Positions 1,667-4,899 are shown, counted from the stretch's first letter. The stretch: 12,902 nucleotides of DNA from a virus (UHGV-0134334); one strand, 5' to 3'. Numbers and translations: made by a program. The notes: generated from the sequence alone by a model not told the origin.

Positions 1667-2050
1667 TTACCTCGCTGTCAGTTGCTTTGATTTCCGGTAG
1701 CCTGCCGCGTAAATGGCTACGTTTGGAAGACATACACCAGTTTCTGGTTGCTTATGTCCAAACTCATTCGCGTACACAATGGCCGCTCTCTCCAGATTGC
1801 GTCTGTATTCTTTCTGTTGCCAGATCACGTCCTGTGCCATGAACTTAATTGGCTTAGCGTCTTCTATGCGCTCAGGCGTTTCGTGAGTACCTTTAGCCTG
1901 AATCTGCGCTCTGCTTAGAGTAGGGCGGTGTAATACTTCTGAACTTATTGCTTCTTCGCGGGCCAGTACGCCGTTAGCTAATGCCTTTGCCTTTAAACGC
2001 TCACGACGACGAGAACGTGAATTGCCTTTGAACTGAGTTCTGCGTGTCAT
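1667..2050 (-). CDS. N-type transcription antitermination protein, P22 gp24-like
   Basis: The 127-aa ORF has an arginine-rich N-terminal motif (..GNSRSRRRERLKAK..) and a C-terminus (..VAIYAAGYRKSKQLTAR) closely resembling the P22 gene 24 product (..ALYAAGHRKSKQITAR). It sits downstream of pL with a GACAA-loop boxB in its leader. Confidence 0.75.
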   Translation of the reverse strand: MTRRTQFKGNSRSRRRERLKAKALANGVLAREEAISSEVLHRPTLSRAQIQAKGTHETPERIEDAKPIKFMAQDVIWQQKEYRRNLERAAIVYANEFGHKQPETGVCLPNVAIYAAGYRKSKQLTAR

Positions 2051-2311
2051 ATAGACCTCCTGATGAACTTTGGTGGTGTGGTGGCTGGTAGTCTAGCTCC
2101 AGCTTGTTGAGTCTCATTCGGAGGGGTATAACCGGCACCCCAGCGATTTTTCCATGCGACAACGTGCGCGTTATGGCGGCCTTATCGCCCGCGGCTCCCC
2201 ATCTCGTCCACGCTATTGCTAGCGTTGGGAGCGCTTCACCGCTCAACAGTAGGTAAGCACTTGCCAGTGACTAGCTGGCTTCACCACACCCCAAAGTTCA
2301 CTTTGGTTATT

Positions 2312-2326
2312 GCGCTTTGTCAGCGC
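2312..2326 (-). promoter_or_regulatory. nutL boxB RNA hairpin, P22 type (GCGCU-GACAA-AGCGC)
   Basis: Minus strand reads GCGCTGACAAAGCGC: a 5-bp stem with a GACAA pentaloop, the P22-type boxB, in the pL leader about 65 nt downstream of the predicted pL start. Confidence 0.6.
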
Positions 2327-2387
2327 CGTAGATTCTTGCTTGAATCGTTGTATATTCACCGCCCTGGTGAGTAGTGCGTCCTGCTGA

Positions 2388-2457
2388 TGTGTTTATTATC
2401 ACCGCCAGTGGTATTTATGTCAACACCGCCAGAGATAATTTATCACCGCAGATGGTT
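2388..2457 (-). promoter_or_regulatory. Lambda-type OL1-OL2-OL3 operators with the pL promoter
   Basis: Exact lambda operator sequences: TATCACCGCCAGTGGTA (2397-2413), CAACACCGCCAGAGATA (2421-2437) and TATCACCGCAGATGGTT (2441-2457). On the minus strand the -35 TTGACA and -10 GATAAT direct transcription leftward toward N. Confidence 0.85.
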
Positions 2458-2610
2458 ATCTGTATGTTTTTTATATATATTTATTTTTTGCAGGGGTGTG
2501 TGGCTTGGGAGGTGATCGAGAGATCTGAATTGCGATGTTTAGTGAGTTGTATCTATTAATTTTCAAATAAATACAATTGGTTATGTGTTATTGGGTGAAG
2601 GGGATCGTGA

Positions 2611-2640
2611 GGCAAAGAAAACCCGGCGCTGAGGCCGGGT
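2611..2640 (-). terminator. Rho-independent terminator ending the cI-ORF145-ORF123 operon
   Basis: Minus-strand hairpin ACCCGGC-CUCAGC-GCCGGGU followed by UUUCUUUG, 7 nt after the ORF123 stop. Confidence 0.5.
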
Positions 2641-2646
2641 TGTGTG

Positions 2647-3018
2647 TTACTTAAGAACGAGTCCGTTTAAGGCATCAAGGATTTTGGAAACATAACTTCC
2701 AAAAATGTAGGCGCAAAATGCGAACACGAAACTGACAACGACCGCAGATGCCTTGATGGTGATTTTTGCTGAGCTAATGCTTGTCTCAATACCTGACAGA
2801 CGAGAATCTACAGATTTTATATCTGACTTTACTTCAGCGAGATCGCGCTTGATGTATTCAACATCAGACTCTAGCTTTGCAACTCTAGCCTCAAGCATGT
2901 TACCTCCGCCGTTTCCTCCACCATGCCGTGAGTATGCATCATCAGTGGAATAGTGTCCAATTGGGCGAGATATGTTTTGATTTGGACGAAGCTGAGCAAC
3001 CTTGTTATCTAAACTCAT
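2647..3018 (-). CDS. Small membrane protein with a Gly-rich motif (HGGGNGGGN), a coiled coil and a C-terminal transmembrane anchor; accessory gene occupying the position lambda uses for rexB
   Basis: 123-aa ORF with a hydrophobic C-terminal helix (..ASAVVVSFVFAFCAYIFGSYV..), last gene of the cI operon. A strong internal SD (GGAGGT) precedes the in-frame ATG at 2898, giving an alternative 83-aa form. Paralogous to ORF 9198..9533. Confidence 0.55.
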   Translation of the reverse strand: MSLDNKVAQLRPNQNISRPIGHYSTDDAYSRHGGGNGGGNMLEARVAKLESDVEYIKRDLAEVKSDIKSVDSRLSGIETSISSAKITIKASAVVVSFVFAFCAYIFGSYVSKILDALNGLVLK

Positions 3019-3442
3019 CGCGAACTGATCCTGTTATCTTCACGTCAAAAAACGAACTTTTTACATCAATTACTTCGCCTTTATCAGGATTAACCAGTGA
3101 TGCTCTGACTTCGAATATCCCAGGCTTGATAATTTTCACCCTTGGGAAGTTAATTCTCATAGAAGTTGATACGATGGTTTCTCCATCGTTGGCTTCTGCT
3201 ACCGTAAAAAACTTATGGTTGGAGTACAGTTTTGTGTCAATTGGTATCGGTATTTCTTGAGCATTGAAAACCTCAATGCCTATGGAATATTTTTTTGTAG
3301 CCTTAAGGCCGATAAAAAAAGCGCCAAATGATAGATCCACTTCATGGGAGTCTTTATCCATTTCATAGATAAGAACTGGAGTTACTGGGTTGCCTTCATC
3401 CATCGCAATCGGAATGATATAAGAAATACGTTCTTTAATCAT
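3005..3442 (-). CDS. Hypothetical soluble protein (145 aa); accessory gene occupying the position lambda uses for rexA
   Basis: ORF starts 8 nt downstream of the cI stop and overlaps ORF123 by 14 nt. AT-rich relative to cI. No transmembrane segment and no recognisable family. Confidence 0.55.
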   Translation of the reverse strand: MIKERISYIIPIAMDEGNPVTPVLIYEMDKDSHEVDLSFGAFFIGLKATKKYSIGIEVFNAQEIPIPIDTKLYSNHKFFTVAEANDGETIVSTSMRINFPRVKIIKPGIFEVRASLVNPDKGEVIDVKSSFFDVKITGSVRDEFR

Positions 3443-3449
3443 TTACGTG

Positions 3450-4163
3450 TTATCCAAACGTCTCTTCAGGCCACTGGCTGGCGATAACTTTCCCCACAAC
3501 GGAACAACTCTCATTGCATGGGATCATGGGGTACTGTGGGTTTAGTGGTTGTAAAAACACCTGACCGCTATCCCTGATCAGTTTCTTGAAGGTAAACTCA
3601 TCACCCCCAAGTCTGGCTATGCAGAAATCACCTGGCTCAACAGCCTGCTCAGGGTCAACCAGAATTAACATCCCGTCAGGAAAACTAGGTTTGGATCCTG
3701 TTGGCGCGGTCATGGAATTACCTTCAACCTCAAGCCAGAATGCAGAATCACTGGCTTTTTTGGTTGTGCTTACCCATCTCTCCGCATCACCTTTGGTAAA
3801 GGTTCTAAGCTCAGGCGAGAACATCCCGGCCTGAACATGAGAAAAAACAGGGTACTCATACTCACTTCTAAGTGACGGCTGCATACTAACCGCTTCATAC
3901 ATCTCGTAGATTTCTCTGGCGATTGAAGGGCTAAATTCTTCAACGCTAACGTTGAGAATTTTTGCAAGCAATGCGGCGTTATAAGCATTTAATGCATTGA
4001 TGCCATTAAATAAAGCACCAACGCCTGACTGTCCCATCCCCATCTTGTCTGCGACAGATTCCTGGGATAAGCCAAGTTCATTTTTCTTTTTTTCATAAAT
4101 AGCTTTAAGGCGACGTGCGTCCTCAAGCTGCTCTTGTGTTAATGGTTTCTTTTTTGCGCTCAT
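3450..4163 (-). CDS. cI: Lambda-type CI repressor
   Basis: The 237-aa translation is nearly identical to phage lambda cI as I recall it (two substitutions), including the C-terminal LexA-like autocleavage domain. It is flanked by exact lambda OR and OL operators. Confidence 0.95.
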
Positions 4164-4173
4164 ACGTTAAATC

Positions 4174-4239
4174 TATCACCGCAAGGGATAAATATCTAAC
4201 ACCGTGCGTGTTGACTATTTTACCTCTGGCGGTGATAAT
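4174..4239. promoter_or_regulatory. Lambda OR3-OR2-OR1 operators with divergent pRM and pR promoters
   Basis: TATCACCGCAAGGGATA (OR3), TAACACCGTGCGTGTTG (OR2) and TACCTCTGGCGGTGATA (OR1), with pR -35 TTGACT and -10 GATAAT. The cro RBS (TAAGGAGGT) follows. Confidence 0.9.
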
Positions 4240-4263
4240 GGTTGCATGTACTAAGGAGGTTGT

Positions 4264-4464
4264 ATGGAACAACGCATAACCCTGAAAGATTATGCAATGC
4301 GCTTTGGGCAAACCAAGACAGCTAAAGATCTCGGCGTATATCAAAGCGCGATCAACAAGGCCATTCATGCAGGCCGAAAGATTTTTTTAACTATAAACGC
4401 TGATGGAAGCGTTTATGCGGAAGAGGTAAAGCCCTTCCCAAGTAACAAAAAAACAACTGCATAA
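4264..4464 (+). CDS. cro: Lambda-type Cro repressor
   Basis: The 66-aa translation ([66 protein letters not shown]) matches lambda Cro. Confidence 0.95.
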
Positions 4465-4502
4465 GTAACACCGCTATTTTCACAATGGACATTCGTCCTA
4501 CG

Positions 4503-4517
4503 TCGCTGACAAAGCGA
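4503..4517 (+). promoter_or_regulatory. nutR boxB hairpin, P22 type (UCGCU-GACAA-AGCGA)
   Basis: A 5-bp stem with GACAA pentaloop between cro and cII. A boxA-like CGCTATTTT lies upstream at about 4471-4479. It is not the lambda nutR sequence. Confidence 0.55.
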
Positions 4518-4602
4518 GTCCCAATATATCTGACCAACTAAGGCCATATGCGTTTCCACGCATACCTTTCAACTAACTATTCACTATTGGAAATATTAAG
4601 AA

Positions 4603-4899
4603 ATGACACAAGCAAGTTACAGCAAGCCAACACAGCGAGAAATTGATCGCGCTGAAACTGATTTACTCATCAACCTGTCAACGCTTACCCAGCGCGGTCT
4701 GGCAAAGATGATTGGCTGTCATGAATCGAAGATAAGCAGAACGGACTGGAGGTTTATTGCTTCGGTCTTGTGTGCTTTTGGAATGGCATCAGACATCAGT
4801 CCGATTAGTAGGGCTTTTAAGTATGCGCTTGATGAAATCACAAAGAAAAAATCCCCGGCCGCCACCGAGGATTTTAAGCAAATTGATATGCAATTCTGA
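4603..4899 (+). CDS. cII: CII-family transcriptional activator (divergent from lambda CII)
   Basis: 98-aa ORF with a helix-turn-helix region and a C-terminus (..KKKSPAATEDFKQIDMQF) paralleling lambda CII (..KKRPAATERSEQIQMEF), in the syntenic position after cro and nutR. Confidence 0.75.
   Translation: MTQASYSKPTQREIDRAETDLLINLSTLTQRGLAKMIGCHESKISRTDWRFIASVLCAFGMASDISPISRAFKYALDEITKKKSPAATEDFKQIDMQF
4612..4625 (-). promoter_or_regulatory. CII-binding site (TTGC-N6-TTGC) of a pRE-like promoter reading leftward
   Basis: Plus strand GCAAGTTACAGCAA gives TTGCTGTAACTTGC on the minus strand, a direct TTGC repeat with 6-nt spacing at the 5' end of the cII-like gene, as for lambda pRE. A candidate -10 (TAATAT) lies downstream on the minus strand. 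Confidence 0.5.
4855..4881 (-). terminator. tO-like terminator of a possible OOP-type antisense RNA at the cII 3' end
   Basis: Minus-strand hairpin CCUCGG-UGGCGG-CCGGGG followed by AUUUUUUU, encoded by the cII codons for KKSPAATE, the same place as the lambda oop terminator. Confidence 0.4.

Follow-up and report, generated by a model that had tools for sequence, protein, structure and literature searches.

The window analysed here, 12,902 nt of DNA from the virus UHGV-0134334, begins with 24 nt of Illumina adapter and carries a lambdoid early control region with the following features:

1667-2050, minus strand: N antiterminator of 127 aa, HK97/H-19B-like, in the Pfam family of P22 gp24
2068-2296, minus strand: N-leader cassette, a structured RNA of 229 nt lying between the nutL boxB and the N ribosome-binding site
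2312-2326, minus strand: nutL boxB, GCGCU-GACAA-AGCGC (GCGCUGACAAAGCGC), 15/15 identical to the P22 nutL boxB and the same as the boxB annotated in mEp234
2331-2346, minus strand: nutL spacer hairpin, GAUUC-AAGCAA-GAAUC, a predicted fold (nutL region, 2331-2378)
2370-2378, minus strand: degenerate nutL boxA, CGCACUACU, at the position of the mEp234 boxA annotation
2395-2457, minus strand: pL and OL, with -10 at 2395-2400 and -35 at 2418-2423 (promoter scan score 11/12)
2397-2413, 2421-2437 and 2441-2457, minus strand: OL1, OL2 and OL3, exact lambda 17-mers
2620-2641, minus strand: Timm-like intrinsic terminator (terminator scan) at the end of the pRM/pRE operon, at the position of Timm annotated in mEp234
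2647-3018, minus strand: rex-slot gene 2, 123 aa (Gly-rich segment, coiled coil, C-terminal transmembrane helix)
3005-3442, minus strand: rex-slot gene 1, a 145-aa all-beta Ig-like sandwich protein, starting 7 nt past the cI stop codon
3450-4163, minus strand: cI repressor of predicted lambda specificity, matching HTH_3 and Peptidase_S24
4164-4263, strand not assigned: cI-cro intergenic region with pRM and pR (4211-4239), 100/100 identical to lambda; pR also in the promoter scan
4174-4190, 4197-4213 and 4221-4237: OR3, OR2 and OR1, exact lambda 17-mers
4264-4464, plus strand: cro, the product 66/66 identical to lambda Cro, with a PF09048 match
4472-4517, plus strand: nutR, with the boxA-like CGCUAUUUU at 4472-4480
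4487-4498, plus strand: nutR spacer hairpin, GGAC-AUUC-GUCC, a predicted fold
4503-4517, plus strand: nutR boxB, UCGCU-GACAA-AGCGA (UCGCUGACAAAGCGA), the same as the boxB annotated in mEp234
4603-4899, plus strand: cII of the HK97 type, 98/98 identical to HK97 cII (PF05269 at 113.9 bits)
4612-4625, minus strand: CII box of pRE, TTGC-N6-TTGC, TTGCTGTAACTTGC, a perfect match
4848-4875, minus strand: oop/tO-like terminator hairpin (terminator scan and fold)

The core of this region, comprising pL with OL1-3, cI, OR1-3 with pRM and pR, and cro, is, judged by its sequence, of lambda specificity. All three OL and all three OR operators have the lambda 17-bp sequence and spacing, and CI and Cro both carry the lambda DNA-binding determinants, as expected for the imm-lambda group. 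The CI protein is identical to that of HK97 (237/237) and matches lambda CI at 235 of 237 residues, the two differences (T3A and K71N) being present in HK97 CI as well. At the DNA level, cI is 97.5% identical to lambda, with 18 nt differences that produce only two amino-acid changes, and cro is 99% identical, with two differences, both synonymous. Because only two amino-acid changes arise from these 18 + 2 substitutions, purifying selection on cI and cro is indicated. Thus, the original prediction that the operators, cI and cro are essentially those of lambda was correct. The wider description of a lambda module applies to these elements, but not to rexA and rexB, which are replaced by two unrelated genes.

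N and nutL on the left, and nutR on the right, appear to form a matched non-lambda antitermination set that brackets the core. The N protein is 98.4% identical to HK97 N (125/127), but only 37% to P22 gp24 and 31% to lambda N. It matches the Pfam family of P22 gp24 (PF25694, N_peptide) at 57.5 bits (cut-off 27.9; P22 gp24 itself scores 152 bits) and also phrog_271, whereas lambda N and Sf6 N match PF11438 and not PF25694. Hence, the antiterminator is gp24-like in family, as had been proposed, although its close relative is HK97 N. An arginine-rich motif, RSRRRER, lies at residues 12-18. As expected for the PF25694 group, this N-terminal motif is accompanied by a boxB with a GACAA loop in both nutL and nutR, each on a predicted 5-bp stem. 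The P22 character that had been assigned to both nut sites is borne out by these loops and by the nutL boxB. However, the canonical P22 boxA CGCUCUUUA is missing (no CGCTCTT[TA] motif occurs in the nutL or nutR region) and a spacer hairpin is present, so that the nut sites are not of the P22 type. The nutR boxA has one mismatch more against the consensus than that of HK97 (CGCUCUUUU). Neely and Friedman are said to have found, in 2000, that boxA is dispensable in H-19B. In that phage, N has the RSRRRER motif at the same position and the same length of 127 aa, and two hairpins have been reported in nutR (PMC3526286). Exact matches of 15 to 17 nt at syntenic positions, as found here, far exceed chance.

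Between nutL and N lies what is, by sequence comparison, a third module, of the Sf6/HK544 type. All 229 nt of this leader are 100% identical in Sf6, HK544, HK633, HK446, mEp213, mEp043 and Sf101. It is closed by a long predicted helix (GAACUUUGGGGUGUGGUGAAG / CCACCACACCACCAAAGUUC), its fold has a z-score of -4.67, and the same closing-helix architecture is predicted for the N leaders of lambda, HK97, Sf6 and P22; a search of Rfam gave no family match. At the other end of the region, cII diverges from lambda cII (37% identity) and from P22 C1 (21%). The PF05269 protein is nevertheless accompanied by a TTGC-N6-TTGC box over its own gene start on the opposite strand, the arrangement of a CII activator, and by the tO-like hairpin; divergence from lambda, box and hairpin had all been noted in the original prediction. 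Downstream of cII, orf48 is 85% identical to P22 orf48.

DNA identity to lambda, as delimited by BLAST, is limited to 2356-2641 and 3454-4478, with 87% identity across the Timm region (2471-2641). The left joint falls in the nutL region, at approximately 2356-2372 from the BLAST boundary and base-level differences, and the right joint falls in nutR, at 4478; both bounds lie inside the intervals of about 2330-2390 and 4465-4500 where the joints had been predicted. Identity to HK97 DNA extends over 1669-2091 (97.4%), 2279-2637 (94.5%) and 3450-4941 (98.5%). The whole arrangement carries GenBank annotation in HK97 (early control region, AF069529; Juhala et al., 2000, as cited in PMC2629481), mEp234 (EF120460) and HK106 (EF120461; both Degnan et al., 2007, Mol Microbiol 64:232, as cited in PMC11893012). 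In the mEp234 record the annotated elements include boxA and boxB of nutL and nutR, pL, OL, Timm, pRM, OR, pR, pRE and the CII site. Furthermore, when junction-spanning probes were counted at a threshold of at least 80% coverage per probe, each joint was present in 111 of 5,426 complete E. coli genomes, including that of E2348/69. As the same joints occur in HK97, mEp234, HK106 and these 111 genomes, the exchange was not made in this prophage; the swap is older. The comparison gives us high confidence that the control region belongs to the HK97/mEp234/HK106 class already described among lambdoid phages, and lies within a defective prophage remnant. Its predicted makeup is an immunity core in which the repressor, Cro and operators are those of lambda, with flanks made up of a non-lambda N, nut sites with GACAA loops and a non-lambda cII. 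The locus is an ordinary case of lambdoid mosaicism, and both the combination and the principle of exchange were already known from the HK97 genome (2000) and a survey of wild lambda-immunity phages (2007).

The surrounding prophage is a defective remnant of about 12 kb, of the P22-like (Sf6/HK620-like) kind, adjoining dsdC in E. coli. Its helicase ORF retains the DnaB N-terminal domain and then stops; directly next to it is the tail of an ejection-protein gene, an ORF whose similarity is confined to the last ~100 residues of such a protein. Neither the ORF list of the window nor the called genes of identical contigs include Q, lysis, terminase, portal, coat or head genes. In its late part the window resembles P22, with the gp16 family, arc, ant, sar RNA and a head-binding tailspike domain, and to that extent the surroundings are the P22-like prophage of the original prediction, but the full set of replication, nin/Q, lysis, packaging and head genes of an intact one is not there. 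At least 24 independent metagenome contigs carry this 12.9-kb structure unchanged.

The state of this remnant, with its heavy deletion, a helicase that is not intact and late and lysis genes missing from the window, raises the question of whether the immunity region is itself an inert relic, in which CI is no longer expressed, the host is not immune to lambda and the mosaic has no present function. One RefSeq record, moreover, lists the N gene of the E2348/69 prophage as a pseudogene. We consider an inert relic unlikely, as every ORF of the region is intact, pRM, pR, pL and all six operators do not differ from those of lambda, the substitutions in cI and cro are nearly all synonymous and many samples contain the remnant without a single base change. 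The N, nut and cII parts may, however, have been freed from selection in a remnant without replication and lysis functions.

Considerably less probable is that a lambda immunity module recombined into a P22 backbone and created a new lambda/P22 hybrid in this prophage. The identity of the nutL boxB to that of P22, the place of N in a Pfam family built around gp24, the similarity of orf48 to its P22 counterpart and the P22-like late part all speak for such an origin. However, the alignment to lambda and P22 that had been suggested as a check, while it mapped the breakpoints and confirmed a lambda-like core with non-lambda N and nut sites, matched P22 within 1667-4625 over just 72 nt (at the 3' end of N, 78% identity), and direct recombination of the lambda module into a P22 backbone is refuted at the DNA level by flanks that are 94-98% identical to HK97. 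The same preference for HK97 over P22 is seen in N (98% versus 37%) and in cII (100% versus 21% for C1), the canonical P22 boxA was found in neither nut region, and identical joints are present in siphoviruses (HK97, mEp234 and HK106) and in the 111 E. coli genomes. Module exchange was thus correctly recognized in a mosaic region, although the joint is not one of lambda by P22. It is scarcely credible that the mosaic is an assembly artefact, a chimeric contig of reads from different prophages, as the adapter and the failure of any complete E. coli genome to cover 80% or more of the whole window might suggest, because positions 24-12902 recur with 100% identity in a 55-kb ENA metagenome contig and with 99.99% identity in a contig of a separate project, 37 blocks of the collection record the truncated helicase product (with the same gene order in the six places detailed), and the control region is contiguous in HK97, mEp234 and E2348/69.

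If the region is indeed an HK97-class control region, it would be expected to work as follows. In the lysogen, CI made from pRM would occupy all six operators and switch off pL and pR, conferring immunity to lambda-immunity phages. The pRM transcript would run on through the two cargo genes in the place of rexA and rexB, and stop at the Timm-like terminator. Once CI is cleaved, pL would yield an RNA with nutL followed by the large leader hairpin beside the N ribosome-binding site, probably an element of RNase III and translational control as in lambda. N would then bind boxB through its RSRRRER arm and, with NusA, allow RNA polymerase to resist termination on both operons. The joints lie between the nut sites and operators, in short sequences common to many lambdoid phages, such as CATCAGCAGGACGC, found where the pL transcript begins; immunity modules are classically swapped in this way, with the matched N/nut pair retained. 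Lambda immunity is a reasonable inference because the operators and repressor are identical to those of studied phages, and the proposed N activity and leader processing are likewise deduced from identity to such phages. The immunity of the host to lambda-immunity phages, part of the original prediction, is therefore plausible.

The slot between cI and Timm, which in a complete lambda immunity region holds rexA and rexB, is occupied here by two unrelated ORFs; no lambda DNA match was found in 2642-3453, and tblastn with RexA and RexB gave nothing below E = 1. The gene 2 product matches phrog_6136 and, weakly and under the Pfam cut-off, XhlA, has its hydrophobic maximum at residues 92-110, showed no resemblance to RexB, and gave no convincing match in PADLOC. 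Another protein built like the gene 2 product (with Gly-rich segment, coiled coil and C-terminal transmembrane helix) is encoded at 9198-9533, in a sieA-like slot. No function was assigned by Pfam, PADLOC or PDB to this protein or to the two in the rex slot. As the rex-slot genes are apparently co-transcribed with cI from pRM, they are probably expressed in the lysogen. We tentatively suggest, as one possibility among others, that the pair could be an undescribed two-component exclusion or abortive-infection module in the role of RexAB, with gene 1 cytoplasmic and gene 2 membrane-anchored. Uncharacterised and probably lysogen-expressed, they are reasonable candidates for phage-defence screening.

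Beyond annotation, the significance of the locus is small, although it is a clean illustration of immunity-module exchange at short conserved sequences between nut sites and operators. It also indicates that a gut lineage of E. coli harbours this 12-kb prophage remnant and, as a result, is probably resistant to lambda-immunity phages.

In comparison with known systems, the region shares OL1-3 and OR1-3 exactly with lambda (J02459), but its N, nut sites and cII are of a different type and rexA/rexB are missing. P22 gp24 and H-19B have in common with the N described here the boxB with a GACAA pentaloop, the Pfam family and the C-terminal motif AAGxRKSKQxTAR, and H-19B is matched further in its arginine-rich motif, N length and two-hairpin nutR. 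The P22 nut sites, in contrast, have the canonical boxA and no spacer hairpin, whereas those here have a degenerate boxA and a spacer hairpin. Sf6, HK544 and mEp213 share the 229-nt leader cassette (window 2068-2296), although theirs stands between a lambda-type nutL and a lambda-type (PF11438) N; the RNase III-processed N leader of lambda has a similar long closing helix. The prophage of E. coli O127:H6 E2348/69 (NC_011601, 2,610-2,631 kb) is 99.5% identical over 93% of the region, including both rex-slot genes, and has the same flanking torI-type excisionase. It differs in its HK97-type N leader, where the Sf6-type cassette is found here; its early-left arm is also full and its helicase intact, and nin, Q and lysis genes are present. 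Finally, HK97, mEp234 and HK106 are siphoviruses, whereas the surrounding remnant here is P22-like, and the variable slots differ: the cI-Timm cargo is gp48/gp49 in HK97, hicAB and one ORF in mEp234, and the 145-aa and 123-aa ORFs here, and the interior of the N leader is 187 nt here and 91 nt in HK97. Outside these slots, the DNA is 94-98.5% identical (CI and CII 100%, N 98.4% and Cro 98.5%), and the three phages have the same order and types of N, nutL, pL/OL, cI, OR, cro, nutR and cII, with the same lambda joints.

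The core of the control region (1667-4625), which extends from N and nutL through OL, cI, OR, cro and nutR to the start of cII, is essentially that of lambda, as the original prediction held. On comparison with the reference loci of lambda (J02459), HK97 (AF069529) and P22 (NC_002371), each of the six 17-mer lambda operators was found exactly and only once in the window, in the order and spacing of lambda, and the 100 bp between the start codons of cI and cro are identical to lambda (100/100). CI matches lambda CI at 235 of 237 residues (the changes are T3A and K71N) and HK97 CI at all 237, and Cro is identical to lambda Cro (66/66); only two of the nucleotide differences from lambda, 18 in cI and two in cro, change an amino acid. 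Furthermore, the two top sites in a promoter scan of 900-6500 were pL and pR.

Features of the control region
2312-2326, minus strand: boxB of nutL (GCGCUGACAAAGCGC), the same as P22 nutL boxB
2397, 2421 and 2441 (starts): OL1, OL2 and OL3, exact lambda 17-mers
2620-2641: Timm-like terminator (terminator scan), after the two rex-slot ORFs
2647-3018: 123-aa ORF of the rex slot
3005-3442: 145-aa ORF of the rex slot, beginning 7 nt past the cI stop
4174, 4197 and 4221 (starts): OR3, OR2 and OR1, exact lambda 17-mers
4503-4517: boxB of nutR (UCGCUGACAAAGCGA)
4612-4625, minus strand: CII box (TTGCTGTAACTTGC)
4848-4875, minus strand: oop-type terminator

Identity breakpoints were mapped by aligning the window with the same three loci by local BLAST.

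Matches to the reference loci
Lambda: 2356-2641 (89%), 3454-4478 (98%) and, at the end of cII, a further short match
HK97: 1669-2091 (97.4%), 2279-2637 (94.5%) and 3450-4941 (98.5%)
P22: 1666-1736 (78%, 3' end of N) and 4907-5078 (orf48, 89.5%)
P22, inside cI: two short, weak stretches of 36 and 94 nt

Lambda identity thus begins and ceases within the brackets where the joints had been placed (2330-2390 and 4465-4500). The P22-type flanks that had been proposed outside those joints were not borne out, as the DNA there matches HK97 (97.4-98.5%) and the P22 matches are few and short; judged by alignment, the flanking DNA is HK97-type, and a P22 type is ruled out. The cII product is indeed divergent from lambda CII (37% identity), being identical to HK97 CII (98/98) and 21% identical to P22 C1, and both the TTGC-N6-TTGC box of pRE and a tO-like hairpin are retained, in the CII box and the oop-type terminator.

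A GACAA-loop boxB is present at both nut sites, as predicted, each folding in silico into a 5-bp stem with that loop, and a spacer hairpin is also predicted in both nutL and nutR. The canonical P22 boxA (CGCUCUUUA) was found in neither nut region. The boxA of nutL is CGCACUACU, matching the mEp234 annotation, and the boxA-like element of nutR is CGCUAUUUU, whereas HK97 and mEp234 have CGCUCUUUU; this single A/C difference, at 4476, places the element further from the boxA consensus than in those phages. The description of the antiterminator as gp24-like is correct at the level of the family, because N shares PF25694 with gp24 (the family of lambda N and Sf6 N is PF11438), but its close relatives are the N proteins of HK97 and H-19B: N is identical to HK97 N at 125 of 127 residues, to P22 gp24 at 37% and to lambda N at 31%, and its likeness to gp24 is limited to the arginine-rich motif (ARM) and the final ~22 residues. 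H-19B N is reported to have the same ARM (12-RSRRRER-18) and 127-aa length as N here, and its nutR to form two hairpins, a spacer hairpin and a boxB hairpin (PMC3526286).

Between the nutL boxB and the N ribosome-binding site lies a structured RNA segment of 229 nt, the N-leader cassette (2068-2296), which is 100% identical in Sf6, HK544, HK633, HK446, mEp213, mEp043 and Sf101. In Sf6, HK544 and mEp213, the three of these that were examined, the cassette lies between a nutL upstream and an N gene downstream, both of the lambda type, and its identity across these and the other phages is independent of N type or immunity type. In contrast, the interior of the HK97 N leader is shorter and different. 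The cassette RNA has a fold z of -4.67, and its long predicted closing helix stops a few nucleotides upstream of the N Shine-Dalgarno sequence; a like helix is predicted in the N leaders of lambda, HK97, Sf6 and P22. For the lambda N leader, processing by RNase III is documented, as PMC5371410 notes in citing Steege et al. (1987). Of 5,426 E. coli genomes, 60 contain the cassette interior, which hardly varies: 59 of 63 E. coli records share at least 99% identity there, leaving no variation for a covariation test. A search of the whole window against all Rfam families (E <= 1) returned only the sar RNA, with none for the cassette or the nut sites. All these phages share the closing-helix arms and the initial ~16 nt of pL RNA (CATCAGCAGGACGC...), which match module boundaries; therefore, at least five joints are counted in the control region, in place of the two originally drawn.

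The interval between cI and Timm, which rexA and rexB occupy in lambda (the rex slot), contains other genes here, and a search against lambda found neither rexA nor rexB in the window. Both rex-slot ORFs belong to PHROG families lacking an assigned function, PADLOC gave no credible match for them or for neighbouring small ORFs, and the ~20 enterobacterial homologue clusters of the 145-aa protein are all annotated as hypothetical. The 123-aa protein combines a Gly-rich stretch with a coiled coil and, at the C-terminus, a transmembrane (TM) segment, and the partner of this coiled-coil/TM protein is the 145-aa protein, an Ig-like beta-sandwich. Homologues occupy the same slot in the Salmonella phages epsilon34 (genes 44/45) and g341c, with 77% nucleotide identity. 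This build, with HGGGxGGG as the Gly-rich segment and the TM helix at the C-terminus, is common to the 123-aa protein of the rex slot (2647-3442) and a small protein at 9198-9533, the latter in a sieA-like slot upstream of arc (23% identity, E = 0.004).

The control region sits in a defective prophage.

Features of the prophage remnant
36-767: dsdC, at the left end of the window
951-1151: TorI-type excisionase, followed by two small ORFs, N, the immunity core and cII
5960-6376: DnaB-type helicase gene (ATG start at 5960), ending after the N-terminal domain
6367-6729: P22 gp20-like ejection-protein gene, last ~100 codons only, abutting the helicase gene
10416-10482, minus strand: sar antisense RNA (Rfam RF00262, 76.6 bits), upstream of ant
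10484-11407: ant antirepressor gene

After cII come orf48, which is P22-like, and an O-like initiator gene with iteron-like repeats. Within the latter, 5458-5558 holds two 35-nt direct repeats (94% identical), each with internal ATTACCA repeats, encoding a duplicated peptide; by comparison with lambda O, they are probably origin iterons. The abutment of the helicase and ejection-protein genes is a deletion junction: full-length relatives carry nin, Q, lysis and head genes between its two sides, all absent here, and the same junction recurs in 24 or more independent metagenome contigs. Beyond it lie a gp16-family gene, small membrane and coiled-coil ORFs and arc-family genes, and the right end carries sar, ant and a tailspike gene with a P22 head-binding domain; the sar RNA, ant and two nearby Arc-family genes form a P22-type immI region. 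The window contains no early-left recombination, nin, Q, lysis or head genes. All that is left of the early-left arm (1152-1666), between N and the excisionase gene, is a pair of small ORFs of 77 and 75 aa, where related prophages have 5-7 kb; the torI-N interval is ~7.5 kb in E2348/69 but ~0.5 kb here. Of the two ORFs, the 77-aa one seems to be a chimera, with an N-terminus that matches phrog_37429 and a C-terminus that matches phrog_676. ARAGORN found no tRNA in the window, which is expected because, in K-12, argW lies at the opposite (int) end of the prophage site.

Positions 1-24 (CCCTACACGACGCTCTTCCGATCT) are the 3'-terminal part of the Illumina TruSeq universal adapter, and this raised the possibility of an assembly chimera, which was rejected since independent contigs have the same structure. 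A 55-kb ENA contig matches positions 24-12902 at 100% identity, and a public collection has the truncated helicase product in 37 blocks, with the same gene order in all six places detailed. An assembly artefact is ruled out. Like the window, the independent contigs extending into the tailspike gene stop 50-115 nt past its 447-aa ORF; contig ends near 12852-12902 suggest an assembly-breaking repeat (an IS element or int/att region, for instance).

If the parts identified by sequence act as the lambda, HK97 and H-19B literature implies, CI made from pRM would repress pL and pR and confer lambda-type immunity, and the two rex-slot cargo genes would be expressed along with it. On loss of CI, N from the pL RNA would bind the GACAA boxB hairpins and act with NusA in antitermination, and CII would act at pRE. 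Derepression of the remnant cannot give replication or lysis, and therefore the immunity and cargo genes are most likely the parts that count for the host; ant, if expressed, could inactivate repressors.

In summary, the original observation is real, yet it describes a textbook mosaic whose exact form is already in the literature and occurs frequently in E. coli. When the region was compared by megablast with 50,697 phage records, the best matches were mEp234, HK106 and HK97 (98% identity, the variable slot excepted), and the mEp234 record (EF120460) annotates the same elements in unchanged order: nutL boxA/boxB, pL, OL1-3, Timm, cI, pRM, OR1-3, pR, cro, nutR boxA/boxB, pRE, the CII site and cII. 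Probes spanning the left (130 nt) and right (111 nt) joints were each found, at a coverage of at least 80%, in 111 of 5,426 complete E. coli genomes. Finally, across 93% of its length the region shares 99.5% identity with the E2348/69 prophage, including both genes between cI and Timm.
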